This document shows positions 3,001 to 41,428 of a stretch of 64,000 bases of DNA, in pieces. Every line of letters begins with the position of its first letter. Within the stretch, counting starts at the first letter, position 1. A model generated the notes under the pieces. The model was not told where the DNA came from, searched no databases, and worked only from the letters and a program-made list of their open reading frames with translations. Origin of the DNA: Candidatus Zhuqueibacterota bacterium (GTDB lineage: Bacteria; Zhuqueibacterota; Zhuqueibacteria; Thermofontimicrobiales; Thermofontimicrobiaceae); the NCBI GenBank assembly GCA_049322915.1, contig JBMOPW010000014.1, positions 32,001-96,000 of the forward strand, given 5' to 3'. The translations under genes and the position numbers were made by a program.

Positions 3001-6000
3001 CATCGAATTGGGCAATACGACGATTACAGCGGACGAAAACCTTGCGCTGTACTGCGCCGGTTACGATGCCGGCAACAATTATGTCGGAGACATGAGCGTC
3101 CAATGGTCTTCCAAGGGAACGTTAGTCCCGGCAGTTTTCGATACCGGCTCTGTGATAAATTTCATGCCGTCGAAAGCGCCGGCATCCGGTAAAATATATG
3201 CAGTTCATCCCACGGCAGCCGATGATTCCACTGGCACTATAGTGGTCAACCCCGGCGTACCGGTGGGAATCATCGTATTGACGCCAACGCCGGCAGTCAT
3301 TCCAGCTACCGGTACCAGCAGTTCGGTTGTGGTCTCGGATATCATTCGGGACGCTGAATTGAATGTCATTGCAAAAAATACGCAGTTCACGGTGACAGCC
3401 ACCCTGGGAACCCTCACAACGACCGATGTAAATCCCTTGTTGCCCAATATTCAGATAGCGGCCAATGATTCGGGAAAAATTCAGTTCACCCTTCAATCCA
3501 CAACTGCCGGCGGGACTGCCTATATCAGCGTGAGCAGCGTGAATGGCAGCGCGACCGGGAATACCACGGTGATGCTGAGTAATTTGAACATTGTCTCTGT
3601 CACCAGCACGTCTTTTTCTGTCTCCCAGGGACAAACGAGTGTGCCCGTCGATTTGGTTGTCGAGAATCTGAGCGCCAGCACAATTTCCAATTTGGCGTCG
3701 GGGTTGGTGTTCACGGGACCAGCGCCGCTATTCGAGAATCGCAACGCCGATTTCCCCAGCGTGATTCGAACCGATGGCATTACGTCCATTCCAAGCGGAG
3801 GAATTCGGACGCTGAAATTTCTCGTCACTGTCAGCGCAAATGCACGAACAGACTCTGTCACCATCGATGGCTGGATTTCCGGATTGATCAACAGCGTGGC
3901 CGTCAACGATACATTTGCACTGGCTCCGTGGAAATGGGTAGTGCAAACGCCACCCATTTTGAAGATTACCAGAATTTCCTCTCTGCTGACGGAAGTGAGC
4001 CAGGGCCGGACAGGTGTGAATGTCTCGATGACGGTGCTGAATCAGGGACAGGCAACGGCCAATGTCACGCTGGATACGTTGAGTTTCTGGTCCGTGAATT
4101 TATCAAAAAGCGTCACCGGGGAGTATCAAATTATTCCATCCATGACCAATCCCCAGACGATTCCAGGGACGAATGGGCGGGCGAAATTTGATTTCACTGT
4201 GAATATTGGCTCGGCAGCGACGCTGGGACAGGTGATTGTCAATGGCGAAATTCGCGGGACAGATGCCAACAGCGGCGCGCTGAAGACAGACAATTCGGCG
4301 GATACCACCCACGCGTGGGTGGTTCAAAATGCGCCGATTGTGGGCATCACTGGTTTTTATCCATCTCAACTGCAGGTGACTAAATCGCAGACTGTGCCGT
4401 GGTCGCTGACGATGATCGTTGCCAATAACGGCGGCACCGCAGTGAGACTGGACAGCGCCCGAACGTCGTTTCTGTTGGGCGGGACAGATGTTTCCGCAGA
4501 GTATACCGTCAGCAATCCCATTCGATTCGTGAAATCCGGGACAAATCTACTCGCTGGCGGGACAGTCGATACCCTGAAATACATCGTCACAAAAACCGGC
4601 GCCAGCGTTGGTCAGTTGACAATTCGGGGGATGATGTACCTCAGAGACATGGGAACTGGCAATCCGATCTCCGATGAAACCTACAGCGGTGTTTTGGTGC
4701 AGGAGCCGGCGCAGTTGAGAATTGTCACTATTTTACCCTCACAAACCAGCGTCACGCGAAACCAGGGGCAGGACTGGTTTGTGCGAGTCGTGCTGAATAA
4801 CGAAGGCGGTTCGGAAATTAGCATCGATACAAATGTCGCCAATACTTTTATCAGATTTAGCACCGGCAATGACTTTGTGATCAGGCAGCCTGATTCGTTG
4901 AGCAATGGTGGACTGTCCCTCGAAGCCGGAACTGTGGATACGCTCGTATTTACAATCGACGGCGCCGGCACGACTCCGGGGAATTGCATCATCTCGTCCC
5001 AGGTATGGGGATGGCAAACGACCAGCGGCGATTCAACGATTGCGACATTCACTCGCACTGCACCAATTCTGGTTCAGGAGCCGGCAAAGCTGCGCATTCT
5101 ATCGGTCGTGAGCAAAGCCCCCAATTTTCCAAATGTGAACAAAGCCCAGGTTTTCCCGGTTCATGTCACGCTGGAAAATAACGGCGATGATGAAGTCGCC
5201 AACGCGTACGCAAAACTGACATCCAGCGGCAATTCGATCGGGGATTCACTATCGCTTCATTTCCAGAATATCCCCGGCAATGGCGGAAAGAAAGAGCAAA
5301 TCCTGAGTATCAAGGCAGATAGCCTGGCAACGCAGCCGGAACTATTCCAGGTGGCCATCTCCCGCGCCTTTGCCCAGAATACCAACGAGCCGGCCGGCAT
5401 CACGCGCGAGTTGGCAGTTGATTCGACGGAGACCGTGATCATTCAAAATCCGGCGAGATTTCAGATCACGAAAACAGTGATGCCTGATTCAATTCTGGCG
5501 TCCCAGGTTGCATCTTGGAAAATAAAGCTGGTGGTGGCAAATAGTGGACAGGCGGGGACAGTACTGGAGATGCCTGGCGCGGATGATATTACGATCAAAG
5601 TGAATGATGTAATTCAGAGGGATTATTTCATTGAGCCGCCGACAGCCCTTCAGGGCGGCGGTCTGGAGTTGGCTGGCGGCAGCACGGACACGTTGATTTA
5701 TACCGTCTCCATCACCGGCAAGGAAGCCGGAAGCGCTGCGATGGAGGCGATTGTTCAATCCAATGATAAAAATGACCAGCATGTGCTCATCGCTCCGGGG
5801 AGATACGATTTTACAATTCGATCCTCGGCTGCGGTGCAGCTTTTCAAGACCGAGGCGATTTGCTTCAACTATGACGGAGAAAAAGGGCTGGTGAACCGGG
5901 GACAGGTTTTTCCCATTCGCGTGTCTGTGCAGAATCTGGGACGAAAATCGGTCCGCGATGTGATTGTCCAATTGACGACCAGCGGTAATTCGCACCTTGC

Positions 6001-16599: not shown

Positions 16600-18432
16600 T
16601 TAATCATTATAACCTACAAATGCGATACCTGCAGTCCCCGGTCCGGCATGCACACCTAACGCCGGCGCGGCTTCCACAATGGGAATCATTTCGGTCAGAT
16701 TGAATCGTTTGGTCAACTGCCTCGCGTACCATTCGGCTTTTTTCAATGCATTGGCATGGGCAATGATGAATTTCACGCGTTTGTATTTCCGGGCTTCAAT
16801 GGATATTTGATTCAGCGTCTTTTTCATGGCGTTTTTATGTCCAATGGCTTTGAACGCAAGAAAAACCCGGCCTTCCTGGTTCAGCGAGATAGTCGGTTTT
16901 AATCTTAGCAAGTTACCGATGAATCCCTTCTTTTTGCTGAGACGCCCGCCCTTGACGACGTACTTCAGCGAGGCGAGGGTGATGAGGATATGAAGATTCT
17001 CGACAGCCTTATTCACGCGTTCGACGACCTTGTCTAAGGCTAAATTTTCTTTGATTGCTTCGGCTGCTTCCATGACAACAAGGCCCAGTGCAGCGGAAAT
17101 ATTTTTTCCATCGATGCACACAATTTTTTTATGTTCAAATGACTTCGCCACCCGCTCGATAACCTGCAGGGTGCCACTGGACGCCCGAGGCAGATGAATG
17201 GAAATGAGAGATTTGTATTTCGTTAAAGCCGTTTGAAATACTCTCTGAACATCCGCTGTCGCAGGCTGAGACGTTGTTGGATGAAACTCGGAAGTGACAA
17301 GCTTGTCGTAAAATTCCATCGGGCTGATATCCACCTTATCGAGATAGGTCTTGGGCCCAAAGATAATCTTCAGTGGGATAATGTGGATATTATTTTCCTG
17401 GATGAACTGATAGGGAAGATCGCAGGAAGAATCAGTCACAATGCCGATTTCGCCAAGCTCTGTTTCTGCTAAGACATGCTGGTGCTGCTGAATCATGTCG
17501 TCGATTTTTTGGTGGGACAGGCTGCCGAAAGAGGATGCAATTTTGAAAACCGCCTCCGGTGAATTTGTATGCATATGAATTCTCACCCGCTCCGCCGATC
17601 CGGCCACAATGAGAGAATCTCCCAGGGGCAGAAGCTGTTCCCGAAGCGACGAATGACTGATCTCTTCGCCCTGAATCATGCATTCCGTGCAAAACCGGAA
17701 TGTGATGTCCATGTTCAGTGCAGCCCCGGCGTATCCTGTCGGACTGGCAGGCTCTATTTTTGACTGATGCAGGATTTGCTTGATTCGCCCTTTGTCAATA
17801 AAATTAACAATTCCCTCCAGCATATTGACAAATCCCTGGGCGCCGGCATCCACAACGCCGGCCTTGCGCAGCACCTCCAACTTCTTCGGTGTATCTGCCA
17901 GAGACTGTCTGGCGGTCTGCAGACCGTTCTTCAGAAGCTCGACAAAATCCTCGGTTCGTTTGGAGGCTTTTTCAATATAATTCGCCCAATCACTAATCAC
18001 TGTTAAAATCGTACCCTCCCGCGGTTCTGAAAGCGCATTATGGGCGCTCAACCGCGCATGCTTTACCGCTTCGGCGAAGGCCGCTGTGGACAGCCGCAAT
18101 TTGCCCTTGACGGCGGTGGAAAAACCATGAAAAAATTGAGCCAGAATGGCGCCCGAGTTTCCCTGCGCGCCCATGAGCGCGGATTCCGCCAGCACAGAAC
18201 TGATGTGGGAGACGGACTTGTCAGACACCTGTGACAGATTCGATGAAATATGGTCCATGGTGTGGGCCATGTTTGTCCCGGTATCACCATCCGGGACTGG
18301 AAAGACATTTATCTTGTTGAGATGATCTTTATTTCGGGATACGATTTTCGAGCTTGCGAGAATTGCATTTCTGAGTCGCTTGCCATCAAGGTATTTGATT
18401 TTTCTGAAGGACATGTTCTTCATTGTGCTCAT
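16600..18432 (-). CDS. DAK2 (FakA-like fatty-acid kinase) fused to a DegV (FakB-like) fatty-acid-binding domain
   Basis: INVFPVPDGDTGTNM, GNSGAIL, EGTILTV, VVDAGA, HMHTN, then DegV motifs VTDSSCDL, TTSQP, GGRL, HAGPG. Confidence 0.92.
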   Translation of the reverse strand: MSTMKNMSFRKIKYLDGKRLRNAILASSKIVSRNKDHLNKINVFPVPDGDTGTNMAHTMDHISSNLSQVSDKSVSHISSVLAESALMGAQGNSGAILAQFFHGFSTAVKGKLRLSTAAFAEAVKHARLSAHNALSEPREGTILTVISDWANYIEKASKRTEDFVELLKNGLQTARQSLADTPKKLEVLRKAGVVDAGAQGFVNMLEGIVNFIDKGRIKQILHQSKIEPASPTGYAGAALNMDITFRFCTECMIQGEEISHSSLREQLLPLGDSLIVAGSAERVRIHMHTNSPEAVFKIASSFGSLSHQKIDDMIQQHQHVLAETELGEIGIVTDSSCDLPYQFIQENNIHIIPLKIIFGPKTYLDKVDISPMEFYDKLVTSEFHPTTSQPATADVQRVFQTALTKYKSLISIHLPRASSGTLQVIERVAKSFEHKKIVCIDGKNISAALGLVVMEAAEAIKENLALDKVVERVNKAVENLHILITLASLKYVVKGGRLSKKKGFIGNLLRLKPTISLNQEGRVFLAFKAIGHKNAMKKTLNQISIEARKYKRVKFIIAHANALKKAEWYARQLTKRFNLTEMIPIVEAAPALGVHAGPGTAGIAFVGYND

Positions 18433-19327: not shown

Positions 19328-21940
19328 TCACTGAAAGAAGATCGGTGCAAAGCCCGTGAAATTCCGGTCGAAAGAAGCTTTCGGGCGGGAGAGATTTTCA
19401 AAAAGCAACGACGCTGAATAGCTGTAGGAAATGAGATAGTCAGACATCAGAAAGGAAAGCGTCCGATAGTCTTCAGTCTGCGGCGCTGGCGGCTGAGCTA
19501 ACAATGTCTCAAAGGGAAGATAACCCAACAGGCCATCCGGGATAATAATGAGGCGATGGCCGTACAGGTATGATTTTACGGGCGAGATTAAACAACAATA
19601 AAGCGTATGAGCGGCTATGCTGTAATCAGTAAAACTTTGTTGCAGTAATCCACTTCGCATTCGGTCCATTGATGCGGTGAAGCTATCATCGATGGAAATT
19701 GACCGTATTTCGAATGTAGTTTTGGTGATTGTAAAAATGAACAGCGTGCTATCGCTGAGGTAATACTCGATGATTCCTGTGTCTGAATCCAGTATCTTGT
19801 CCTGAATTTGTTTTGCGGTGGCGTTGGCGGTTTGATATGTTAAATTGTAATAGGCAGGGTAGTTCAGTTCGAAGGTATTGACAAGGCTTTCATAGTTTCG
19901 TTTTAACTGAAATAGCCTGTTTTGCAGTGACCTCACTCTTTCGCTATCTGCATCGGTTCCCTTTTGTGTTTCATCAAACAGGAGCTTGTCCGTGAATGAA
20001 AGATCGATTTTCAACTGTCGTTCAGTGTCCAGAAGGCTATCCGGGATGCCGGCGAATTTCCTGGCGTTGGATTCGATGAGCGCCTGATGCAGCGCGCCGG
20101 ACTTACTTTTCTCGGCAAAGGAGAATGCAACTTCTTTCAAGTCGTGCGCATGGGTGATGGTGTACAGCTCAAACACACTGGTAATTGCCTGACCGTAGAT
20201 GGAATGCATTTTTTCGCCCAGGAATAATTTCAAATTCTCTGATTTATAGCCGGTTCGAATGTGTTCAATGAGATCGGAAATTAAGGTGTACGTTACAACG
20301 GATGCCTCCAGATTTTCGATATGACTTCTGTCGTCCAAATATAATTCATTGAACAGCTCCGCTTTTCGGGTCAGGATATCCAGCAGTCTGGTCTCCTCGT
20401 TGAGCTGTGTGAGAGGAGGATTGACATAAACATTGTCGGAATCGAACCCTGGAAAAAGCGCGTGCAAGGCGCGTTGCAAACAGGATAGCGCTTTCCTGAT
20501 CCGATGTTGTCGGTGATAGACTTCAGCGATTTGCTGATACGCTTCTGCAATGAGCGGATGATTGTTGCCCCAGATACGTTGACTCAGGCTCACGGACTTA
20601 TTGAGATAATGAAGCGCTATGTTAAAATCGCCCAGATCTGTATAGAGAATTCCCATATTGTTGTAAATAATTGCCATGAGTGAATGCTGCTGTGTTGAAA
20701 GCTGCCTGGCCATGGAGAGCGCCTGCCTGTAATACTCAATCGCCCGATTAAAATCCTTTTTCAGCGAATAAATATTTGCAATGTTGAGCTGGCAGCGGAC
20801 AATATCCGGGTGAACCCGTTGCTCCATGCGCAGTTGCACGTTAAGGGATTGCTGGTAGTAATGAAGCGCCTCATCGTACATCTCCTTGTTTTTAGAGATT
20901 ATTCCCAGGTTGTTGTACAACGATGCAATTATCGGATGGGTGTCGCTAATCGTCACCATCACCAGCGATAACGATTTCTGAAAGTAAGCCTGCGCGTCTT
21001 CGAGGTTGCCTTTTCGGAGCCAGATAGTACCCAGATTCAGGTAATTTCCAGCCAGCGATGGGTGATTGCTGCCAAGTCTGTTCTGCACAATGCGGATGGA
21101 TTTTTCATAGCACTCAATGGCGCGGTCATAATCCCCTTTGGTGAAATGAAGCACGCCTAGGTTGAGGTAGCTGTTGGATACGTCCGGGTGGTTCTCCCCG
21201 ACTGCCTCCAGCCGGATGGCAAGTCCCTTTTGATAATAGGCCATCGCATTCTCGAAATCCTCTCTGGCAAGTGCGAGAATACCTAAATTGACATAACTGT
21301 CAGCGACCAAAGGGTGCGTCTGTTCATAGACTTTTTTTCGGATGGCTAATGCATCTTCATAAAATTCAGCAGCCTTGTCATACTGACCATAAAAATAGTT
21401 GACAATGCCCAGTCCGTGATAGCTATTCGCCAATTCTTCATCGTGGGCAGAATCGGTTTTTTTCAGTAGGCAAATTGCCTCGTGAAAAGCGCTTTCAGCC
21501 GCGGCTAAATCACCGCGCTTCTGAAAAATTATGCCGCGGGCGTTGAGGATTTTTACAGCCGGAATTTCATTCGTCGAAGTGAAAAGGGCGAGAATATGGG
21601 ATGCGCTGTCCACCTGGCTTTTTGCATCTTCATAGCGGCCCGATTTCACGAAGTTTGTGCTCTTGCCGCAGAGGCAATCGATTGCTTTTTCCCATTGCTC
21701 CTCTCGGATAAGTTGGTATAAAGCCAGATCATAATAATAATTAGAACTGTCGTAGAAGGCGGCGGTATGCAGCTTAGCCGCTCGCTGTAAACATTCAACC
21801 GCGGTAATCACGTCAACCCGGGTCTGATGCGACTGAAGCATCGGTACGTTTCTTTGATTTTTTATAGAATAGACGAGTCCACTGGCAAGAATGACGGTGA
21901 GCAAAATAGCAGTATATTTCCTGTAGTGTGGCTTTTTCAT
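19328..21940 (-). CDS. Exported/membrane-anchored TPR protein ending in the N-terminal half of a CHAT domain
   Basis: N-terminal hydrophobic helix; ~9 kinesin-light-chain-type TPRs (HP..A.SY.NLG); EKSKS; IIEYY; LIIIPDGLLGYLPFETL; ends SYSYSASLL...FTGFAPIFFQ without the catalytic His/Cys. Confidence 0.9.
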   Translation of the reverse strand: MKKPHYRKYTAILLTVILASGLVYSIKNQRNVPMLQSHQTRVDVITAVECLQRAAKLHTAAFYDSSNYYYDLALYQLIREEQWEKAIDCLCGKSTNFVKSGRYEDAKSQVDSASHILALFTSTNEIPAVKILNARGIIFQKRGDLAAAESAFHEAICLLKKTDSAHDEELANSYHGLGIVNYFYGQYDKAAEFYEDALAIRKKVYEQTHPLVADSYVNLGILALAREDFENAMAYYQKGLAIRLEAVGENHPDVSNSYLNLGVLHFTKGDYDRAIECYEKSIRIVQNRLGSNHPSLAGNYLNLGTIWLRKGNLEDAQAYFQKSLSLVMVTISDTHPIIASLYNNLGIISKNKEMYDEALHYYQQSLNVQLRMEQRVHPDIVRCQLNIANIYSLKKDFNRAIEYYRQALSMARQLSTQQHSLMAIIYNNMGILYTDLGDFNIALHYLNKSVSLSQRIWGNNHPLIAEAYQQIAEVYHRQHRIRKALSCLQRALHALFPGFDSDNVYVNPPLTQLNEETRLLDILTRKAELFNELYLDDRSHIENLEASVVTYTLISDLIEHIRTGYKSENLKLFLGEKMHSIYGQAITSVFELYTITHAHDLKEVAFSFAEKSKSGALHQALIESNARKFAGIPDSLLDTERQLKIDLSFTDKLLFDETQKGTDADSERVRSLQNRLFQLKRNYESLVNTFELNYPAYYNLTYQTANATAKQIQDKILDSDTGIIEYYLSDSTLFIFTITKTTFEIRSISIDDSFTASMDRMRSGLLQQSFTDYSIAAHTLYCCLISPVKSYLYGHRLIIIPDGLLGYLPFETLLAQPPAPQTEDYRTLSFLMSDYLISYSYSASLLFENLSRPKASFDRNFTGFAPIFFQ

Positions 21941-21941
21941 A

Positions 21942-22751
21942 TCATTCCACTGTGTGCGTGCGAAATTTTTTGATCAGCAGGAAGGCTGAAATGATGATGA
22001 GGACAATGGCTGGAATAATCCATTGCCAGTGATGACGCGCTGTACTGAGTTCCAGGGGAGATGTATCGCCGGTCAGGACAAAGCCAGCCCAGTAGTAGGG
22101 CGCTGATTTGATCTCTCCGGCATGGCGAAGATAGTTCAGTTTTGCGGTGCGAAGAGCAGCATCTTTGCTGGAACCCCGAATGAGTTCGGCATAGAAATCG
22201 GCCATGATGTGAGAAGTTGATTTGTCATCGACCGGCCACAAGCTCATCGCGATGCTCGGGCACCCTGCGTACATGAAGCTTCGCGCCAGGCTCATGATGC
22301 CTTCTCCCTGGACAAGTTTGCCGCTGCCGGTGTTGCATGCGCTTAAAACAGCCAAATGCGCGTTGAGTTCCAGATTGTAAAGCTCATAAGCGAACAGCTT
22401 ACCGTCCTCGGATAATGTGTCTTTCGGCGAGAAGGCTAAATAGCTGTACATCGGTTGAAGTTCATTGATAATCGTATGCGTTGCGAGATGGAGGATGCGC
22501 GACTTCGGGGCGTATTTCTTAAAATTCGCTTCGGTGGCCTGACGGCGCAGGAATACGTCTCCGCGAAGCAGATTGTCGATATTGCTCACCTCTTGTTCTG
22601 TCCAGGTCAAATCGTGAAGAGTTGCCTGGAGAGGCTCGGACAAAGGTTGATGAAAGGAGAGTTGCTCCTGAGCGAATAGCGAGTAATTTCCGGCAAAGAT
22701 CATTGCCAGAGCCAGCGCGAGCAGGCGCGTGTTAATCATTGGCATTTGCAC
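21942..22751 (-). CDS. CHAT (caspase-like) protease catalytic C-terminal half with its own signal peptide and C-terminal TM anchor
   Basis: Signal-like LLALALAMIFAGNYSLFA; LHLATH (His), VLSACNTG (Cys), GEG, SLWPVDD, PYYWAGF; TM WIIPAIVLIIISAFLLIKK. Confidence 0.92.
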   Translation of the reverse strand: MQMPMINTRLLALALAMIFAGNYSLFAQEQLSFHQPLSEPLQATLHDLTWTEQEVSNIDNLLRGDVFLRRQATEANFKKYAPKSRILHLATHTIINELQPMYSYLAFSPKDTLSEDGKLFAYELYNLELNAHLAVLSACNTGSGKLVQGEGIMSLARSFMYAGCPSIAMSLWPVDDKSTSHIMADFYAELIRGSSKDAALRTAKLNYLRHAGEIKSAPYYWAGFVLTGDTSPLELSTARHHWQWIIPAIVLIIISAFLLIKKFRTHTVE

Positions 22752-22888
22752 ACGAAGTAATGAAAATTCATAAGTGGGTCATTTCAGAAAAATGCTCACC
22801 GCGAGTCGATCTTGCGGCATCTGGAAGGAAACTGAATGTTAAACGCCCTGAAAAATTGAATTGTTTCTCACCCGAATGATGGTCCCGG

Positions 22889-23662
22889 CTATCGCTTTGT
22901 AAGGAGGTTCAAAATTTGTTCGCTCTGCTTTCTGTATTTGCTTGCCGCAGATACTGATTGAAATACCGCCATTGCCTCTGGAATTCGTTCCAGCCTTACC
23001 AGCGCCAGCCCCTGGTACCATTGCGCAGGATCGCGGTAGGGAGAACTGTGGGTTTTCATAATAGCCTCGAAGTGAGGAAGCGCCAGTTGTGGTGTGTCGT
23101 TGATTAGCTGGCACATCCCGGCATAAAAATGGGCGCCGGCGTTTCCTGGCTCGTGCGCTAATAGCTGATCCAATAATTGCTGGCAGGCGGCAATCTGATC
23201 TTTTTCATAGTTCAACATCGCCTGCAAGAAGAGACCCTGACTGGACTCTCCCCTGACGATCGGCGTGATATTCGGGTAAGCCTCGAAAAACTGATTGAAA
23301 ATTCGTTGGTGTGTCTGGTTTGTTTTTAGCAGAAGAAAAGAAGTCGCCAGAGCAACGATAACAAGCGCTGCCATTCCGTACCGCAGCATTGGGTTGCGCC
23401 AGCCTGATTTGGTGCGGCTGAGCCGTTGAGAGACCGAAGTCTGGAGGGCAGCTATGGCAGTGCGGAACTGTAACTCCCCGGCGCTTTTCTGAAATCCCTC
23501 GATGGCATCAGCGCAAAATGGGCAGTGGCGGATATGCAAGTCAATTTTCTCTTTCTGCTCAGGCCGAATGTTGTGTCTTGAATATGAAATGAGTTCATTC
23601 AGCGACAGACAATCCCCAACCGTGGACGCTTTGTCCTCGCAAGTAACATTTTTTTCATTCAT
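22889..23662 (-). CDS. Zinc-binding anti-sigma factor with TM helix and extracytoplasmic TPR domain
   Basis: HIRHCPFC (HxxxCxxC ZAS motif), one TM helix, C-terminal TPR-like helices; overlaps the sigma gene. Confidence 0.85.
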   Translation of the reverse strand: MNEKNVTCEDKASTVGDCLSLNELISYSRHNIRPEQKEKIDLHIRHCPFCADAIEGFQKSAGELQFRTAIAALQTSVSQRLSRTKSGWRNPMLRYGMAALVIVALATSFLLLKTNQTHQRIFNQFFEAYPNITPIVRGESSQGLFLQAMLNYEKDQIAACQQLLDQLLAHEPGNAGAHFYAGMCQLINDTPQLALPHFEAIMKTHSSPYRDPAQWYQGLALVRLERIPEAMAVFQSVSAASKYRKQSEQILNLLTKR

Positions 23663-24254
23663 CTTTTCGGAATTCCCTATCTTGAAGTAAAATATTCTTT
23701 AGGTTCCGCCTTCCATTCTGGATATGACTCTTCACTTTCCCGACCTCAAATCCGGTCGTGTCAGCGATATCCCTGTATGATTTCTTTTCGAAATAAAAAA
23801 GCAAGAGGCATTGGCGCTGCGCTTCAGTCAGTTGATTTAATGCGGCATGTACTTTCGATTCGATATCGCTTTGACCACTATTAAGAGTATCAAAGTCTTC
23901 AAATTCCATAAAAATATTTTTAAATTTTTCAGTTTTTTTCTGCTGAATATTTTCCTTCGTTTTATTTTTTCGAAGGTTATAGAGGCAAAAATTTTTTGTA
24001 ATTGAATACAACCAGCTACTAAAATTGGTCACCGGTTGTATTTTCAGCTTGGTCATGACTTTTTCGAAGATTTCCAGAACCGCATCCTTGCTGTCTTCCT
24101 CATTCCCGAAATATTTCAGGCAGGCGCCATAAACAAGGTGACAATAGCGCTGAAACAGCTCTTCAAAAGCAGCAATATCGCCGTGATCCCTGAACATCTG
24201 AACCAGTTCACGATCAGTTTTTTTCGTCATGAAATTTTTAAAATAGAATCGCAC
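23655..24254 (-). CDS. ECF RNA polymerase sigma factor
   Basis: AFEELFQRY, DAVLEIF, FSSWLYSITKN, SYRDIA...VKSHIQNGRRNL. Confidence 0.93.
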   Translation of the reverse strand: MRFYFKNFMTKKTDRELVQMFRDHGDIAAFEELFQRYCHLVYGACLKYFGNEEDSKDAVLEIFEKVMTKLKIQPVTNFSSWLYSITKNFCLYNLRKNKTKENIQQKKTEKFKNIFMEFEDFDTLNSGQSDIESKVHAALNQLTEAQRQCLLLFYFEKKSYRDIADTTGFEVGKVKSHIQNGRRNLKNILLQDREFRKDE

Positions 24255-24447: not shown

Positions 24448-27400
24448 ATGTCACAAAAATGCTTTCATTTTTTGCTGGCAGCCTGTCTGCTGTTCCCGAT
24501 AGATGGCTACGGATTTGATAAGCAGGCGAAAACAAAAGCATCATCCACGCTGATAAAGCGTGATTCAGCCGTGATTGACGCCAACCAAATTTCAATGGTG
24601 GTGATGAACAATGGTACATTTGGCCGCGATCCGATGTCAGGAAGCGGAGCATTTTTCTTTCCAAAAGGAACGGATAAAAAATTACTCTATACGGCAGGAA
24701 TAGAAATCGCCGGAAAAGTGAACGGAGACATTCGAACTGCCTGCGCAAATTATAATGTCGAATTTCAGCCAGGAAAAATTTTATCGACCGGAGTGGCAGA
24801 CGATCCTGATTTGGAGAAATATCGAATTTACAAAATCAAACCGGGCGATTCCGCAGATCCGGCAAGTCCGAATTATAACATCGATTATGCCGAGTGGCCT
24901 GTCGAGGATGGCGCGCCGGTGGACGCGTCGGGAAGTCCGCTTATCCTCGGCGACCAGACGATGTGGCTCGTCATGAATGATGCAAATGAAAGCCTTCACT
25001 CCGGCTGCTATAACACAGAGCCGTTCAACCTTGAATTGCAGTTGCTGGTCTGGGCGTTCGACGATGAATCGACTGCAATGGGTAAAACTGTTTTTATGCA
25101 ATACACGCTGATCAATAAAAGCCAGAATTCTATCGAAGATGCCTATGTCGGGATTTGGTCTGACGCAGATGTGGGCGACTCCTTTGATGACGCCCTTGCC
25201 TGCGATACCACGCTGGATTTGACCTATGCCTACAATGGAGATGATAGCGATATGATGTACGGGACTGATATCCCGGCTGTTGGGATATGTTTGCTGCAAG
25301 GCCCTGCTGTGCCTTCCATCGGCGAAACAGCATTTCAATTTTTGCATATTCCAGTTTTGAACGCGCGGAATTTAAACATGACCTCAACCAGCGTCTATTA
25401 CTGAGCGCACGAACGATTCAGGGATCCTGAATATACGAGTCGCGGTGCGATTCAATTGTATGGCAATTTTGAAGGATTGGATTTTTTAGGCGATCCAACA
25501 GTCGATTTGTCTACTGGAGAGAATTCTCCTTTTATGAACAGCGGGAATCCTGTTTTTAATACCGGCTGGCTGCAGGACCTCTATATGAAGCCGTGCGATT
25601 TATATTTCCTGCAGGGCAGCGGTCCATTCTCACTCGCGCCTTTGGATACGCAGCGCGTTGTTTACGCAATCATTGTTGGTCATGGAGAAACACGACTGGA
25701 GAGCGTACTGGAATTGAAGCGCAATACAAATTTTATCAGGGATGTCTTTCGCAATGAATTTCAGATGAAAGCCTGGACAGAAACCGAGGTGCGCGTACCC
25801 TCCCAATCCAGGATGGAAATGGCGATTCGGTCAAAGGTGGAAACTGAGGTTGGTACTCAGTCCATTCAGGCGGATTTGCTCACGTACAGCGATTCCCTCG
25901 TCCGAACCATTGATCTGTACGACGATGGGACCCATGGCGATGCTCTAGCCAGCGATTATATTTTTAGCCATGCGCTGACGCTTGATGCGTTGCACCAGGC
26001 GCTTTACATCAACCTTCGAATCAAAGCCGTAAGCGGGAAAGAATATTCTTTCTTGCACGCTGCTGAAGACATCGCTGCGATTTATCCCGATGTTTTTATC
26101 TCTGAAATTGATGTGGCTGCGGATCATTTGAACAATGATGGAAAAATCAACCCCGGCGAGAATGTCCGATTATGCTTCCAGATTAAAAATGAACTGCCTT
26201 TTCCCATCACGTCATTGAATGTGCTGGTGCTACTGGATACGGCTCTTGTACAGGGCAATCCGGAGCATTTCTTTTTTAAGAATGTCGGGATGAATGAATT
26301 TGCGGAGATGGACTATGATCCAAATGACGAGTCGAGCTTTTATGAATTGGATGTCTCTCCGAATTTCCTGGCAGAAAATCCGTCAAATGACAGGATTGAT
26401 TTGAATGTCAAGTTCTATGTCAATGAACATCATATCTGGGATCAGAAATTCACCGTCTCATTGTCGGTTCAACCGCTGGAGCATATTCCCAATCTGGTAA
26501 TCCCTGCCCATATTTCCGGCTATAGCAGCGCCACGTTTGAAATCAGCGTCATCGATCCTGATCAGCTTACCGGGCATACCTATGCAATTACTGTGAGTGA
26601 TTCCATCAATGAGAACGGCGATCCGGGCTTCAATCTCATCGATCAAACATTGGGAGATACTTTGCTCAAACGTCACGAATTGCCGGACACCTATGCCTAC
26701 AATATTCCTATCACAGATGGATTTAAAGTGACCAGAGCCGTTCTGCCCGAAGTAGAACTCAGCGGGCATTTCGAGTCTTATTCCGGAGATGATTTGCGGC
26801 CATTTTATGGGATTAGCTACGACGCCAGTCTGTCGCCATCGATGGTGACATTCGGCGACGCGATCCCTGAACATTATTGCCCGGTGGAAATCGAATTCAC
26901 CAATCGCGTTGATTCCAGCGGTGTGGTTGGCGCTCTGCTTGGCCAGAGTGGATTTCAGCACACGGTATCTCCGCTGCACGGCATAGTCGGATTTTTCCCC
27001 TGTGGAATCAATGTCTGGAAAATTGTCAATAATCAAAGAGCCGGACGGTTGAACATCATCTTCCAGGAAGAATCGCCGTCGCTGCCAGCCTACGATGAAA
27101 CCTGGACTCCCGGCGAATGGCTTTATATCATGGCCAGCAATTACGATGCAACCGGGCAATTGTATCTGGGATTGACGGAAATTCCAATGGGCAGTCTGCT
27201 TTATAAAATGAATCTTTCTTTGAGAAGAGCGGAAAGCGCCGCCGGCATCGGGGATAAATTATATTTTGAACGTTGCTTTCTACCCACAGTTGACGATATG
27301 TGGTTATTCTCTCCCACAAACATTCTGGATGATGGGAATCGGCTTCCGACGCGATTTGAGTTGTACCAGAATTACCCCAATCCATTCAATCCCACGACCA

Positions 27401-27627
27401 CAATTCGATTTTCGATTCCGAAGCAATCACAGGTCAGTTTGAGAGTTTACAACATCCTGGGACAGGAGGTCGCGGACCTGTTCAATCGTATTGCTGGGCC
27501 CGGCGACTATGCTGTGAACTGGAATGGAAAAGATCGGTTCGGGCGGTCAGTTGTTTCAGGTATTTATTTTGCCAGATTTGAGACAAGTGCCGGGACGAGG
27601 TTGATAAAAATGGCGTTGATTCGATAG
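24448..27627 (+). CDS. Secreted protein with C-terminal FlgD/T9SS-like sorting domain, interrupted by an in-frame TGA at 25402-25404 (candidate selenoprotein, or nonsense pseudogene)
   Basis: ORFs 24448..25404 and 25456..27627 are in the same frame, joined by TGA plus 17 sense codons (AHERFRDPEYTSRGAIQ). The joined 1059-aa product is colinear with the adjacent paralog across the junction. Confidence 0.85.
25405..25450 (+). promoter_or_regulatory. SECIS-like hairpin directly after the in-frame TGA
   Basis: Upper stem ATTCAGG (25416-22) / CCTGAAT (25426-32) with loop GAT starting 18 nt after TGA; lower stem CGCAC (25406-10) / GTGCG (25445-49). Confidence 0.5.
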
Positions 27628-27653: not shown

Positions 27654-30600
27654 GTGAAATACAAAATATTTCTTCTGATATTAGCCTTTCATTCATTTGT
27701 TTTCTCGGAAGAAAATAAAATCAATTCGCTGAAGAAACCTGCGGTCTACTCCTCCAAATATTTTGACGTCAACAGAATTGTCTGTTCGGTGCATAACGAC
27801 GGCATTATTGCCAGGCACCCCATCAGCGGGAACAGCGATTTTAAATTTGACGACGATTACCTGGTTTACACCTCCGGCCTGTGGCTGGCCGCCAAAGTGA
27901 ACGGCGCAGTCAGGGCTTCGGCGGCAGATTTCAACACGGACTGGATTGGCGGCGCCATCGATGAATTTGGGAATCCGTTCGGCAAGGAAGACTCCACGTT
28001 CCGCGTTTACAAAATTTCCCGCGGGGATAATGCGGCCACAAACCCGGATTACGCGCAGTGGCCGTCGCAGTTGGGAGCGCCAACCGATGCCCAGGGCAAT
28101 CCGCTGATCTTGGGCGATCAAACACTGTGGTGCAGTTTCACGGATGCGTTCGTCGATGAAAGGATTTGGTACAATATCTGTCCACCGTTAGGCGCAGAGG
28201 TTCATTTAATGGTTTGGGGCTGGAACGAAGTTGATAACGCAATTTTTGTTCGATATGAAATTATCAATAAAAGCGCTGCAATATGGGAAGATACATACTT
28301 TGGTATGTATTCGGATCCTGATGTGGGTGACGCCAACAACGATTTAACCGGGAGCGACAGCACGTTGAGCCTTGTTTACTGTTACGATAATGAAAAGACC
28401 AATTATTATAATAGTAATTATTCTGTGGGGTATGTTTTGTTGGAATCCCCACTAATTCCTTCGACGGGCGATACAGCATTCACCTGGTGGGGCAGAAGAT
28501 TTGATTTTCAAAATGCGCCAATTTACGCGCCGCGCATAGAAAAACACGATTCATATGGATGGGGAGAGGTTAGTTATACATCGAGTGAAACCGCTACCCA
28601 AATTTACAATCGGCTGCAATGTTTGAGTTACAAGGGAGAGCCTGCCATTAATCCAGTAACAAATCTACCGACAAAATGGACTTATTCGGGCGAACCTGTC
28701 ACAGAGACTGGCTGGATCGATAATATTTATCCTCCACGGGACAGGCGAATGATGCTGTCCACAGGGCCGGTCACACTGGCTCCGGGCGATACAGCCGCAA
28801 TCACACTGGCGATTATGGCGGTTCAGCGCAACAAAACAATGGATACGATCGTGGATGTGAAGAGCAATGCTGGGGCGGCGCTGGAGGCCTTTCAAAATGG
28901 CGCCGGCTTATATTCGGAAAAAAAATATGCACCGCCTGGTCAGCAGGGGCTGCTCGTACCAATTCGATTGCTGAATTTTCGGGAATTAGAGAAGCTGGAA
29001 TTTACAATTCGTTGGGAAAAGGAAAAACTGATTTTTCGTGACATCGAACCGGTCAATCGAGCGAAGAATTTTTCTGTGAACTCGGATCAGATCAACCCAG
29101 GAACGACGCGCGTTGAATTGGTGAATCCTGTCTCGGAAGCACTTTCTGTCGGAAATGGAGAGATATTTCAAATCGAATTTGATGTTGCCGTGAATGGGGA
29201 AAGCGAGTTGGTTGATTTTCGAATTAGCAACACGAGCGCAATGGACATCGATGGAAATTTACTAAATCTGAAATCAATCACTAACACAATCGAGATTGAG
29301 CAAATGCATCCGCCGCCGCGGTTGTACACGCCGCCCAATGGTCACTATCTGGATGGAATGAATGTTCAATTCTCCTGGTCGCGAGCCGGAAAAGATAGTG
29401 AAAACTTCACGTACCTGAAATTCGAAAATGATACATGGTCAAAAGTGACAGTTTTTGATACGACCCTGACCATGCCCATGAGGGAATTTGTTTTCAATTC
29501 GAACAGGCCGGATCCAATTGGCTGGTATGTGGCAGTGATGGACTATTCCGAGCCTCTGCTGTCTGTGGAAAAATATTATTTCAGCGTCCCTTCTGTTGAG
29601 GAGTTGAGTTTTGCGCGCCAAATAGTGGAATGCGATATTTCAGATACGACCATTGCCTGGCCGAGAGTGGAAAAATTAGCCATTCAGCTTCCCTACTTTT
29701 ATCTCATCAAGGCGATAGATTTAGGAACGGAGCGTTATGAGCTAACCGTACTTCGACTTTCTCAAAATAATTTCCAACTGGTGAATAAGCAGGATCTGTC
29801 TCCGTTTCTTTTTGATGGGCAATTGATCGTTTCGGGAGACAGGGCATTTTCGTATTATAACAGCCTCATTTACATGTATACCATCAACCAAAATCAGCAA
29901 TTCGTTTTTGATAAATATGCGACCGTGGATTCTCCCATCGGTGTTCTTTTGAAAAATGAAGAGTATTTTTACATTCTCTCGAAGGAAAATTCAGCGCCTA
30001 ACATATTAATCTATAAAGTGAATGAATGGGGAGACCTGGTAAAACTGAGTGAAATTTCCCTGGCTGGCTGGTCCGATGAAACAAGAGAGAGCTCGGGAGA
30101 AGCCATTCGCCTGAAAGACGGGCGGTTGTTTGTGGCCTACGGCGACTGGGGAATTTTCGATGTGTCCGATCCGGGTGCGCCACAGTTATTGGTGCGGTGC
30201 GATATTCCTGATGAGGCAGCGTCCATTGACTACGAAGATGGCAAGGTATATGTCGGTGGTGATAATTACTGGTTGGGTATTTATGACATAACTTCATCTG
30301 AAAATCCGCTGCTTGTTTATAGCGAAACGGTCGAGGATTCGTGGAATGATTGGGCCAAACATCTATCTGTTTATGAAGGAAAGGTATACCTGCATGACCG
30401 ATGGAGAATGCAGGTTTGCCATTATGAACCGGGCAGGGGATTCGTCATCGATGGAATTTTCAATCAGCGCGAATTAGTAAAAATGTTTCAGGATCGAATC
30501 TATGTTATCGACTGGCGATGGGATTGGCAAACGACAATCAGCATCTATGAAAACAGTTTTGTTTCTCGGTGTAATTCGAAGGAAAATGGGGATGCAGTGA

Positions 30601-30875
30601 AGTTCAATTTGGTACAAAACTACCCCAATCCATTCAACGACCGAACGCAAATACATTTTGATGTAGAGAGAACCGCCCAGGTCGCAGTGACGATTTACAA
30701 CATTCATGGCCAAAAAGTAAAAACGTTGCTTGCCGAAGTGAAAGCAGCCGGCAGCCATAGACTGGAATGGGATGGGAAAAATGATGCCGGGCGAACAGTC
30801 GCATCCGGGGTGTATCTGTGCGAGTTGCGCGCCAGTGATCGTTCCAGCATAAAAAAAATATTGCTTTTAAAATGA
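27654..30875 (+). CDS. Secreted paralog with cohesin-like and LVIVD-like segments and a C-terminal FlgD/T9SS-like domain
   Basis: Shares YKI..GD....PDYA.WP...GAP, PLILGDQT.W, INKS, SD.DVGD..DD with the upstream gene; C-terminus QNYPNPFN...WDGKND.G..V.SGVY. Confidence 0.85.
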   Translation: MKYKIFLLILAFHSFVFSEENKINSLKKPAVYSSKYFDVNRIVCSVHNDGIIARHPISGNSDFKFDDDYLVYTSGLWLAAKVNGAVRASAADFNTDWIGGAIDEFGNPFGKEDSTFRVYKISRGDNAATNPDYAQWPSQLGAPTDAQGNPLILGDQTLWCSFTDAFVDERIWYNICPPLGAEVHLMVWGWNEVDNAIFVRYEIINKSAAIWEDTYFGMYSDPDVGDANNDLTGSDSTLSLVYCYDNEKTNYYNSNYSVGYVLLESPLIPSTGDTAFTWWGRRFDFQNAPIYAPRIEKHDSYGWGEVSYTSSETATQIYNRLQCLSYKGEPAINPVTNLPTKWTYSGEPVTETGWIDNIYPPRDRRMMLSTGPVTLAPGDTAAITLAIMAVQRNKTMDTIVDVKSNAGAALEAFQNGAGLYSEKKYAPPGQQGLLVPIRLLNFRELEKLEFTIRWEKEKLIFRDIEPVNRAKNFSVNSDQINPGTTRVELVNPVSEALSVGNGEIFQIEFDVAVNGESELVDFRISNTSAMDIDGNLLNLKSITNTIEIEQMHPPPRLYTPPNGHYLDGMNVQFSWSRAGKDSENFTYLKFENDTWSKVTVFDTTLTMPMREFVFNSNRPDPIGWYVAVMDYSEPLLSVEKYYFSVPSVEELSFARQIVECDISDTTIAWPRVEKLAIQLPYFYLIKAIDLGTERYELTVLRLSQNNFQLVNKQDLSPFLFDGQLIVSGDRAFSYYNSLIYMYTINQNQQFVFDKYATVDSPIGVLLKNEEYFYILSKENSAPNILIYKVNEWGDLVKLSEISLAGWSDETRESSGEAIRLKDGRLFVAYGDWGIFDVSDPGAPQLLVRCDIPDEAASIDYEDGKVYVGGDNYWLGIYDITSSENPLLVYSETVEDSWNDWAKHLSVYEGKVYLHDRWRMQVCHYEPGRGFVIDGIFNQRELVKMFQDRIYVIDWRWDWQTTISIYENSFVSRCNSKENGDAVKFNLVQNYPNPFNDRTQIHFDVERTAQVAVTIYNIHGQKVKTLLAEVKAAGSHRLEWDGKNDAGRTVASGVYLCELRASDRSSIKKILLLK

Positions 30876-40147: not shown

Positions 40148-40657
40148 TTAAAACTTGAAGGCTTTATCTAATTCTTCATTGAGGTATTTATTAAAATCGA
40201 CGTCGACGAATTGAGTGCTTTTTTGTTCATCTGCCTTTACATTGTCCAGAAGCAGGTGGAGAGCGTCAATGGCGCGTTTTGTATAAATTCGGATCATCCC
40301 CAGCGCAGTCTGCGAATCGAAAATGAGAATCAGTAGAAAATTATCTCCGACGTTGGACAGGTAAACGTTATATTTTTCACCTTCGTGATAGATGAATTTG
40401 AACTGCTGCTTTTCACCAATGATTTTTGCAATTTCAGACGTGGCGGAAAAATCGCCGGCAGCCAGGGCTGCCATGTTTGAAATATTCAAATCGGCCGCGT
40501 TACCACGCTGCGTGATGGGATGGCCATTCATGTCAGCGAAAATAATTGTACGGGCTCGGGTTTTGGTTGCCAATTCAGATAAAATCTCTGAAATCGACTT
40601 GTACATTTCTCCCGAAAGTACAATGGACTGTCCATTTCCTCCATGTTCCCAATTCAT
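40148..40657 (-). CDS. mglB: MglB-family roadblock protein (GAP for MglA)
   Basis: ALAAGDFSATSEIAKIIGE..F, LGMIR; immediately upstream of mglA. Confidence 0.9.
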   Translation of the reverse strand: MNWEHGGNGQSIVLSGEMYKSISEILSELATKTRARTIIFADMNGHPITQRGNAADLNISNMAALAAGDFSATSEIAKIIGEKQQFKFIYHEGEKYNVYLSNVGDNFLLILIFDSQTALGMIRIYTKRAIDALHLLLDNVKADEQKSTQFVDVDFNKYLNEELDKAFKF

Positions 40658-40699
40658 AGTTGTTGTTCTCCATAGATTAAAGCGGTTTCCCCGGGAAGA

Positions 40700-41428
40700 T
40701 CACCTTCCCACGAATATTCTTTCTGCTAAAAATTCTGGCAAACCAAATGACCGCATCGCGTCATAGGTTTTATGTATGTCATAGCTGATTCGCTTGAGCT
40801 GATAACTTCGCGTTTGAGTATCGAATATCCCGAATGCGGATTTAGGATTATTGTCTCTCGGCTGTCCCACGCTCCCCACATTAATTATGTACCGATGACC
40901 CTCCTTGATCTCCAATTCTCTGTCAGTCGTGAAGGAATAGTTGGCGTCCCTGTTCTCGATATAAATAATTGGCTGATGAGAATGCCCAATGAAACATAGT
41001 TGCTCATTGAATTTAGAGAAATTGAAAATCGCATCGTCGATAGATAAAATGTAATCCCAGGAACTCGGTGCATACGGGTTCGAATGGACAAGACAGTAAT
41101 TATCTCCTTTGTGTTCCAGCGGGAGATTGGCAATTTCCCGCAACGTTTCGTCTGATAATTGGGTCACCGTCCATTCAATCGCTTCTTTGGCAAATTGATT
41201 AAAATATAAAAGTTCTGATTTTTCTATACAGGCAAAGTCGTGATTTCCCGTAAGAATGACTTCGCAATTTTGCTTTACGAGATTCAGACATTCATTGGGA
41301 AAAGGCCCATACCCCACAACGTCGCCAAGGCAAAATATTTTATCGATATGCTCTTTTTCGATCAGCTTTAAAACTGTCTCTAACGCTTCGAGATTACTGT
41401 GGATATCAGAAATAATGGCATATCGCAA
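40700..41428 (-). CDS. Calcineurin-like metallophosphoesterase
   Basis: SDIHSN, GDVVGYG, GNHD, GHSH, NVGSVGQPRD. Confidence 0.92.
   Translation of the reverse strand: MRYAIISDIHSNLEALETVLKLIEKEHIDKIFCLGDVVGYGPFPNECLNLVKQNCEVILTGNHDFACIEKSELLYFNQFAKEAIEWTVTQLSDETLREIANLPLEHKGDNYCLVHSNPYAPSSWDYILSIDDAIFNFSKFNEQLCFIGHSHQPIIYIENRDANYSFTTDRELEIKEGHRYIINVGSVGQPRDNNPKSAFGIFDTQTRSYQLKRISYDIHKTYDAMRSFGLPEFLAERIFVGR

Follow-up and report, generated by a model that had tools for sequence, protein, structure and literature searches.

A probable selenoprotein gene with an in-frame UGA and a type IX secretion domain in a Candidatus Zhuqueibacterota genome

The locus

The window analysed here, a stretch of 64,000 nucleotides from contig JBMOPW010000014.1 of a Candidatus Zhuqueibacterota genome (GCA_049322915.1; handle G000) that covers positions 32001-96000 of contig C14, contains on its forward strand a long reading frame that runs from an ATG at 24448 to a stop codon at 27625-27627 and is interrupted by one internal stop only, a TGA at 25402-25404, which corresponds to residue 319. 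An initial annotation, made from the letters of this DNA, had proposed that selenocysteine (Sec, U in the motifs below) is inserted at this codon into a secreted protein with a sorting domain. Below we bring together the evidence from the frame, its homologues, the RNA structure downstream of the TGA, the translation machinery of the genome and the predicted protein, and compare the Sec reading with its alternatives. The features that bear directly on the decoding of the TGA are the following.

24448..27627, forward strand: the putative selenoprotein gene as a whole, 1059 codons and a terminal stop, with one internal TGA
25402..25404, forward strand: the predicted Sec codon UGA, residue 319, in the motif YY-U-A-H-E-R-F, assigned from a column of TGA and Cys in homologues
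25416..25432, forward strand: candidate bacterial selenocysteine insertion sequence (SECIS) hairpin, AUUCAGG / GAU / CCUGAAU, from folding and comparison with homologues
25437..25453, forward strand: a second hairpin, GAGUCGC / GGU / GCGAUUC, from the fold of positions +1..+50 (G000 and genome G124)

The reading frame and its TGA codon

Direct reading and translation bear out what was initially annotated, a single TGA in an otherwise open frame of 1059 codons; the context in the protein is ...TSTSVYY*AHERFRDPEY..., and the read-through product has 1059 residues. The table of open reading frames (ORFs) divides the frame into an upstream part (24448-25404, 318 residues, ATG start) and a downstream part (25456-27627) that has the TTG start noted earlier, and a protein collection holds the downstream ORF of 697 residues as a separate entry (P0018). 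TGA terminates 10 of the 26 long ORFs in the window and is therefore an ordinary stop codon there, which means that the genetic code is not reassigned.

The genome is derived from a metagenome, and contigs of this kind drop rare variants. The assemblies were checked for a sense codon at 25402-25404, and TGA was found in both sources: the probable source run, with a word depth of 83.7, is identical to the window and offers no alternative letter, and a contig from an independent study, which spans 25202-25442, differs at four nearby positions and retains the TGA.

Homologues at the TGA column

Residues 150-520 served as the query of a word-indexed search for related proteins, which returned 78 of them, and 30 sequences were aligned. 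Eight full-length proteins have Cys in the column of the TGA (YY-C-x-H), 12 rows have R, S, P, G, N, W or a gap, and nine proteins of 651-723 residues have no residue there, their ORFs beginning just downstream of the column, as would be expected where a gene caller meets a TGA.

A six-frame search that allowed read-through was made in 167 genomes of the window's phylum (E <= 1e-30; the tally includes two unpublished genomes, on which no result rests), and 124 of them contained a match. Among the 150 matches listed (92 further matches are unlisted), 17 contain a stop codon, in each case a single TGA, and neither TAA nor TAG occurs in any of the 150. When stop positions were mapped by tblastn, the TGA fell in the same column in seven orthologues (G124, G131, G132, G123, G127, G074 and G122), which are 44-73% identical over about 1000 residues, share the motif YY-U-(A/G)-(H/N/Y)-x-R-(F/Y), and keep about 740 codons past the TGA open and conserved in each case. 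Five further orthologues (G070, G071, G043, G044 and G045) have Cys in this column. As regards the earlier question of whether homologues would have Cys or TGA rather than Trp or variable residues at this position, the orthologue clade holds TGA (eight genomes, this one included) or Cys (five), and not Trp or random residues.

Distant paralogues with a single TGA in the same loop are present in G106, G098, G159, G047, G039 (two), G076 and G094 (two). A scan of metagenomes with the N-terminal alignment gave 16 loci, some of them near-duplicates, with TGA in 10, Cys in three and another residue in three; a scan with a full-length alignment, keyed on the secretion-tail motif, gave 76 loci that were mostly unrelated cargo and are excluded from the counts. 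With this query, no TGA was found in 27 matches from five genomes of other phyla, nor in the 50 matches listed (E <= 1e-45) from 86 genomes of the phylum of G169.

The hairpin downstream of the TGA

The candidate SECIS hairpin consists of the arms ATTCAGG (25416-25422) and CCTGAAT (25426-25432), which form seven perfect base pairs around the loop GAT (25423-25425). It starts 12 nucleotides after the TGA, and sequence and fold confirm that its loop begins with G and lies 18 nucleotides past the TGA, as had been described. The 'two-tier' form ascribed to it holds in part: a minimum-energy fold of 65 nucleotides has a lower stem, which takes in the UGA itself, and the fold of positions +1..+50 (-15.8 kcal/mol, z = -2.2) gives two tandem hairpins instead. 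The second of these, with 7 bp, stands 33 nucleotides past the TGA; it is kept in G124 and in contig L139 (the latter read by eye) through one-sided changes, G-U to G-C and U-A to U-G, and is not evident in more distant orthologues.

Energy of folding does not by itself set the window hairpin apart from chance; its significance comes from the comparison with homologues. For this, distinct sequences were pooled (23 with TGA, seven with Cys and 20 with another residue) and scored for perfect Watson-Crick stems with a loop of 3-14 nucleotides, starting at +13..+30. A stem of at least 6 bp is present in 16 of the 23 TGA copies and in none of the 27 copies lacking TGA; a Fisher test on this measure gives 5e-8, a value that overstates the difference because the pooled sequences are related and not independent. 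Lowering the limit to 5 bp gives 18/23 against 3/27, and G stands at the first or second loop position in 21/23 against 11/27 copies (our own count from the table). The corresponding comparison of energies gives a mean of -9.1 kcal/mol for TGA copies and -6.4 kcal/mol for the others at equal G+C (one-sided p = 0.012).

The stems belong to at least three designs, which are one codon apart and have nearly identical offsets; since the hairpins lie in three registers, it is the presence of a stem that is compared, and not classical covariation on one fixed structure. The design of the window, ATTCAGG/CCTGAAT, recurs in G124 and L139 with varying loops (GAU, GAC, GAA), and L141 has a compensated stem, GUAUUCUG/CAGAAUAC (which can also be written GTATTCTG/CAGAATAC). 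The design (G)CGGTTC/GAACCG(C) is found in G123, G127, G122, G074 and several contigs, and the design GCGGTAT...ATAACCGC in G131 and G132. The same residues, R-F-x-(Q/E)-P, are encoded as CGG TTC nnn (C/G)AA CCG in Sec forms, which pair, and as CGT TT(C/T) nnn CAG CCG in Cys forms, which do not.

In the review PMC13188914, the bacterial SECIS (bSECIS) model is given as a loop of 3-9 nucleotides, a stem of 4-16 bp, G in the first two loop positions, a distance of 16-37 nucleotides from UGA to loop, and a minimum free energy no higher than -7.5 kcal/mol. The window hairpin agrees with the model in loop, stem, G and spacing. A search of 25350-25550 gave no Rfam match at E <= 10, which is expected, since to our knowledge that database has no general model for bacterial SECIS elements.

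Selenocysteine machinery of the genome

The initial annotation had pointed to the Sec machinery as a check, and all of its components were found in this genome. The tRNA-Sec scores 63 bits against a cut-off of 47, with the anticodon tca according to ARAGORN. The genes selA (561.6 bits), selB (364.6 bits, adjoining selA) and selD (two copies, 408 and 374 bits) exceed their curated cut-offs. The second selD copy has an in-frame TGA of its own, which implies that SelD itself would be a selenoprotein. The selD loci lie at G000:C14:562220-563146 and G000:C2:57472-58398, and one selD is part of an open frame of 736 residues, about twice the usual length of SelD, which suggests a fusion. Every one of the 15 genomes in which a TGA copy occurs has selA; in the phylum as a whole, the gene is present in 130 of 167 genomes.

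Architecture and fold of the predicted protein

Four parts of the read-through protein can be placed on the sequence.

24448..24513, forward strand: N-terminal signal-like peptide, approximately residues 1-22 (MSQKCFHFLLAACLLFPIDGYG), recognised by eye from the hydrophobic N-terminus
24556..25761, forward strand: predicted beta-supersandwich (galactose-mutarotase-like) domain, residues 37-438, from AlphaFold2, VIA-align and Foldseek
25594..25596, forward strand: Cys383 (TGC), the putative partner of Sec319, from its co-occurrence with U or C at column 319
27373..27624, forward strand: predicted C-terminal sorting domain for type IX secretion, residues 976-1059, from TIGR04183

The AlphaFold2 model, built from 80 sequences, has a predicted local distance difference test (pLDDT) score of 92.3 and a predicted template modelling score (pTM) of 0.87. 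In this model, residues 3-14 form a helix and residues 19-32 a linker of low confidence; a single compact beta domain follows, which includes the TGA site and has residue 319 in a loop directly after the strand 313-318. VIA-align superposes the model best on 9ju0 (Z 19.1, 251 residues, 3.1 Å), then on 1ulv (18.4) and 1lf6 (18.2), followed by enzymes of the glycoside hydrolase (GH) families GH94, GH65, GH116 and GH174 and by aldose epimerases (Z about 12); Foldseek returns the same families with template modelling (TM) scores of 0.33-0.37. As modelled, the N-terminal domain is a galactose-mutarotase-like supersandwich, a statement on fold only, which implies no enzyme family. As this one domain encloses the TGA site, a chain that ended there would have an incomplete fold and no secretion signal, and two separate products would break the fold.

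Searched with the N-terminal 480 residues at E <= 0.001, a library of 1.84 billion proteins gives 5936 representative clusters; the domain family is very large and has no name. Searches of the whole protein against Pfam and NCBIfam release 20.0 gave matches confined to the C-terminal tail, and a profile search against the sequences of solved structures likewise matched the C-terminal domain alone. The tail scores 35.5 bits against the cut-off of 23 of TIGR04183 (residues 976-1054) and 24.2 bits against PF18962, below the cut-off of 27. Type IX components are encoded in the genome above their cut-offs, PorU twice (868.7 and 818.5 bits) and SprA (712.8 bits), together with dozens of other proteins that have a type IX sorting domain.

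Among the PorU-related sequences, a PorU-like match that also resembles C25 peptidases, in L155 (G000:C44:174000-182500), had been flagged with one TGA. It was rejected as a Sec candidate, since the TGA lies outside the ORF of 934 residues (2745-5549), which has no internal TGA. This ORF has no signal peptide; an upstream ORF of 235 residues has one, and another gene with a secretion tail lies between them. The L155 PorU-like gene may be disrupted or rearranged.

A partner cysteine

In the alignment of orthologues, all nine rows have Cys at or next to residue 383. In the pooled set, Cys at about 383 or up to eight residues downstream is present in 25 of the 30 copies with U or C at column 319 and in one of the 20 others; several of the five U/C copies that lack it are alignment shifts. 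Two Sec orthologues without Cys383 have a Cys closer to the Sec, at U+6 or U+7 (YY-U-GGTVF-C in L141, YY-U-GGASRF-C in L147), and distant Sec paralogues show similar spacings (U-GGAF-C, U-GAQA-C, U-GAPPG-C, U-GRFPQ-C and U-GGFFL-C). A partner Cys that moves and yet is nearly always present resembles a resolving cysteine, and on these grounds a selenylsulfide redox pair is proposed: the pattern suggests that Sec319 and the partner Cys form such a pair.

Tandem paralogue and evolution of the Sec site

The gene is followed by a tandem paralogue.

27654..30875, forward strand: tandem paralogue of 1073 residues with the same architecture of supersandwich and secretion tail, without Sec or Cys at the site

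Alignment confirms the initial remark that the adjacent paralogue has no Cys at this position. In the ESM Atlas the paralogue finds 'hypothetical protein' clusters only, with scores below 0.9. The same tandem pair is present in G124, and G122, G123, G131 and G132 have arrays of two to four copies per contig.

An IQ-TREE tree made quickly from 56 N-domain rows, which gives no direction of change, places 16 U, seven C and two to three other rows in the orthologue clade. The U state requires at least eight changes on this tree and occupies several separate clades, the starred branches forcing at least five of the changes; where the distant U rows belong is uncertain because of long branches. In family f8, the residue is U in G074 and C in G070 and G071. 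Scattered U and C states on the tree indicate that Sec has repeatedly been exchanged with Cys or other residues at this site.

G169, the genome of locus L104 and from another phylum, has 15 matches to the N-terminal domain at E <= 1e-20, several of them clustered on C24, C7 and C41; going by such matches, the domain family is strongly expanded in some lineages.

Neighbouring genes

Divergently oriented from the gene, a cluster on the reverse strand (19328-24254) encodes an ECF-type sigma-70 factor (23655-24254), a TPR protein (22889-23662), a CHAT-domain protein (21942-22751) and a TPR protein of 870 residues with a weak C-terminal CHAT match (19328-21940). Also on the reverse strand, an ORF of 610 residues (16600-18432) contains Dak2, FakA-like middle and DegV domains and looks like a fusion of two fatty-acid kinase subunits. 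Another frame joined by a TGA, 426 codons on the reverse strand (40151-41428), was considered as a Sec candidate and rejected: it comprises two ordinary genes in the same frame, one for a metallophosphoesterase-like protein, the second beginning at a Met past the TGA.

Interpretation and alternatives

The explanation that we regard as very probable is that the TGA is a Sec codon served by SelB and the hairpin, with export of the product by the type IX route and pairing of Sec319 with Cys383 as proposed parts of it. Following the established bacterial Sec pathway, SelB carrying Sec-tRNA(Sec) would bind the hairpin at 25416-25432 during translation and deliver Sec to the UGA, and the ribosome would make one protein of 1059 residues with Sec at position 319. 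As its sequence suggests, this protein would be exported across the inner membrane by means of the N-terminal signal-like peptide, and would then pass the outer membrane by way of type IX secretion, for which it has the C-terminal sorting domain. Sec319 would lie in the loop after strand 313-318 of the beta-supersandwich domain, a fold that usually handles carbohydrates, and, judging from their co-occurrence, Sec319 and Cys383 would form a selenylsulfide/selenol-thiol redox centre. Judged by the features that the field uses for computational selenoprotein families, given in PMC12013277 as an in-frame UGA, TGA homologues in other bacteria that use Sec, Cys homologues and a bSECIS-like hairpin immediately past the UGA, and with the Sec machinery in the genome, the gene almost certainly encodes a selenoprotein. 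The initial proposal of Sec insertion in a secreted sorting-domain protein is therefore supported, in that the machinery, the homologue column and the assemblies were all tested and none of them was contrary to it.

Several observations weigh against this explanation. The fold of 65 nucleotides has an energy of -17.5 kcal/mol with z = -1.45, and 18 of 200 shuffled sequences fold as well. The bare hairpin, at -6.0 kcal/mol, is weaker than the bSECIS limit of -7.5 kcal/mol, and the outcome varies with the span taken for scoring (the span +1..+50 reaches -15.8 kcal/mol). In the stems labelled type B the loop begins 14-15 nucleotides past the TGA, and falls within the range of 16-37 only when counted from the U (17-18). 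The statistics for both the hairpin and the partner Cys count related, non-independent sequences. The genomes with Cys forms also have selA, so that the presence of the machinery does not separate Sec from Cys forms. Neither a CxxU nor a UxxC motif is present, and the lack of the former, already remarked upon at the outset, is plain from the sequence. Finally, the column is variable in the wider family (N 68, C 25, G 21, S 16 and gap 74 of 255 rows), which means that not every member needs residue 319 as a catalytic centre.

Of the other explanations, a sequencing or assembly error at 25402-25404 might be suspected because the genome comes from a metagenome and its contigs drop rare variants. 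Considering the depth of the source run without an alternative letter, the TGA in the contig of the second study, and the same codon in independent assemblies of related species, its probability is negligible. Only slightly higher, and still very low, is the probability that a nonsense mutation from TGG or TGC to TGA has made the gene a pseudogene. Such a history would account for a single in-frame stop and for the gene having been split by the gene caller (P0018), and the tandem paralogue could cover the function; on the other hand, the TGA stays in its column in orthologues as distant as 44% identity, each with about 740 open and conserved codons after it, TAA and TAG are lacking among the homologue matches listed, and TGA appears in several separate clades of the tree, with at least eight changes. 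The TGA homologues in the same column and the independent contig together exclude both of these explanations, and refute the earlier estimate that a mutation or sequencing error was equally possible.

It is also conceivable that the UGA is decoded without Sec, either through near-cognate read-through (Trp, Cys or Arg), or mostly by termination, with the product of 318 residues as the main form and the full-length protein as a regulated minor one. UGA is the leakiest stop codon in bacteria, hairpins can promote read-through, and some termination product is to be expected in any case, as Sec decoding is usually inefficient. Against this stand the alternative residue in the orthologue clade, which is Cys, the chemical analogue of Sec; the presence of selA in every one of the 15 TGA genomes and the fit of the hairpin to the bSECIS loop, stem, G and spacing; and the fragment of 318 residues, which would be an incomplete supersandwich without a secretion domain. 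We consider decoding without Sec unlikely. More room is left for the view that Sec319 is real and forms no pair with Cys, acting as a metal ligand or lone nucleophile while Cys383 is structural. Further Cys residues are conserved (C99, C252 and C281), and invariant Asp and Glu residues (E196, D248, D268 and others) could form a metal or sugar site; the partner Cys, however, tracks U or C at 319 (25/30 against 1/20), and in proteins without Cys383 it relocates to U+5..+7, as is typical of a resolving cysteine. This view of an unpaired Sec is a possibility to be taken seriously, though we doubt it.

What would follow from a secreted selenoprotein family

As a tentative proposal, about which we have more doubt than confidence, the family would be the first selenoprotein family among type IX cargo, an enzyme that is surface-bound or released and has, on its carbohydrate-handling scaffold, an extracellular redox centre made up of Sec and a mobile resolving Cys, with at least five gains or losses of Sec in the phylum. 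If this is true, these bacteria of sediments and biofilms would carry out selenium-dependent redox chemistry on extracellular substrates, possibly glycans. The family would add a large, secreted, non-thioredoxin member to the bacterial selenoproteome and would show that cargo of type IX secretion can carry Sec. It would also mark one loop of a large uncharacterised domain family as functionally important, giving an entry point to the role of the domain, and the moving partner Cys would be a natural experiment on Sec-Cys redox pairs. Gene callers split the Sec-form genes, and the family is consequently mis-annotated wherever it bears Sec; collections hold downstream pieces of 697-723 residues and an upstream piece of 321 residues of such genes.

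Comparison with known selenoproteins and related systems

We know of no supersandwich relative that is a selenoprotein. A review of 2026 lists 119 prokaryotic selenoprotein families and subfamilies (PMC13188914, Table 1), and neither this domain nor a type IX tail occurs in that table. No NCBIfam selenoprotein model matches the protein, and its N-terminal part has no NCBIfam model of any kind; the view that it belongs to no known selenoprotein class, taken when the gene was first annotated, fits with both results. A full-text literature search returned nothing relevant that links a selenoprotein with type IX secretion, and no selenoprotein among type IX cargo is named in the searched main texts of the review and of the BSepDB and deep-Sep papers. 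Some homologues are labelled KSB1 or Calditrichaeota by their sources; the accessible part of the paper on the KSB1 candidate phylum reports selA, selB and selD in the phylum and names no selenoproteins.

Families that were recognised computationally, such as the TonB-dependent receptor of the FCYXU type from deep-Sep and the hypothetical DG, DW and DF families, rest on the same type of evidence together with the Sec machinery; the present protein differs from them in not being thioredoxin-like and in its very large size of 1059 residues. Exported selenoproteins as such are not new. The periplasmic FdnG and the [NiFeSe] hydrogenase are examples. The review PMC13188914 lists DsbA- and DsbG-like proteins, a thiol:disulfide interchange protein, a TonB-dependent receptor, an MtrB/PioB-like outer-membrane barrel and a UshA-like protein. 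All of these receive Sec in the cytoplasm and act outside it, as the present protein would. Whereas those proteins use the Sec or Tat route and stay in the periplasm or outer membrane, the type IX domain found here implies release or attachment to the surface.

On the side of the fold, the N-terminal supersandwich is common to this protein and to GH15 glucoamylase and glucodextranase (1lf6, 1ulv), dextran dextrinase (9ju0) and GH94, GH65 and GH116 enzymes, and likewise to stand-alone supersandwich proteins such as aldose 1-epimerases and the GH174 fucanase. The superpositions range from Z 19.1 to 14 over 230-260 residues at 3.0-3.7 Å, with 6-11% sequence identity. In contrast to the supersandwich enzymes, no attached (alpha/alpha)6 catalytic domain appears in the match list, and a likeness in fold does not establish one in function. 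With type A cargo of the type IX system (TIGR04183 / PF18962) the protein shares a C-terminal domain that exceeds the TIGR04183 cut-off, and the machinery for it is encoded in the same genome. The mechanism of Sec insertion is a known one, and it is the family, the export route and the fold that are new for a selenoprotein.

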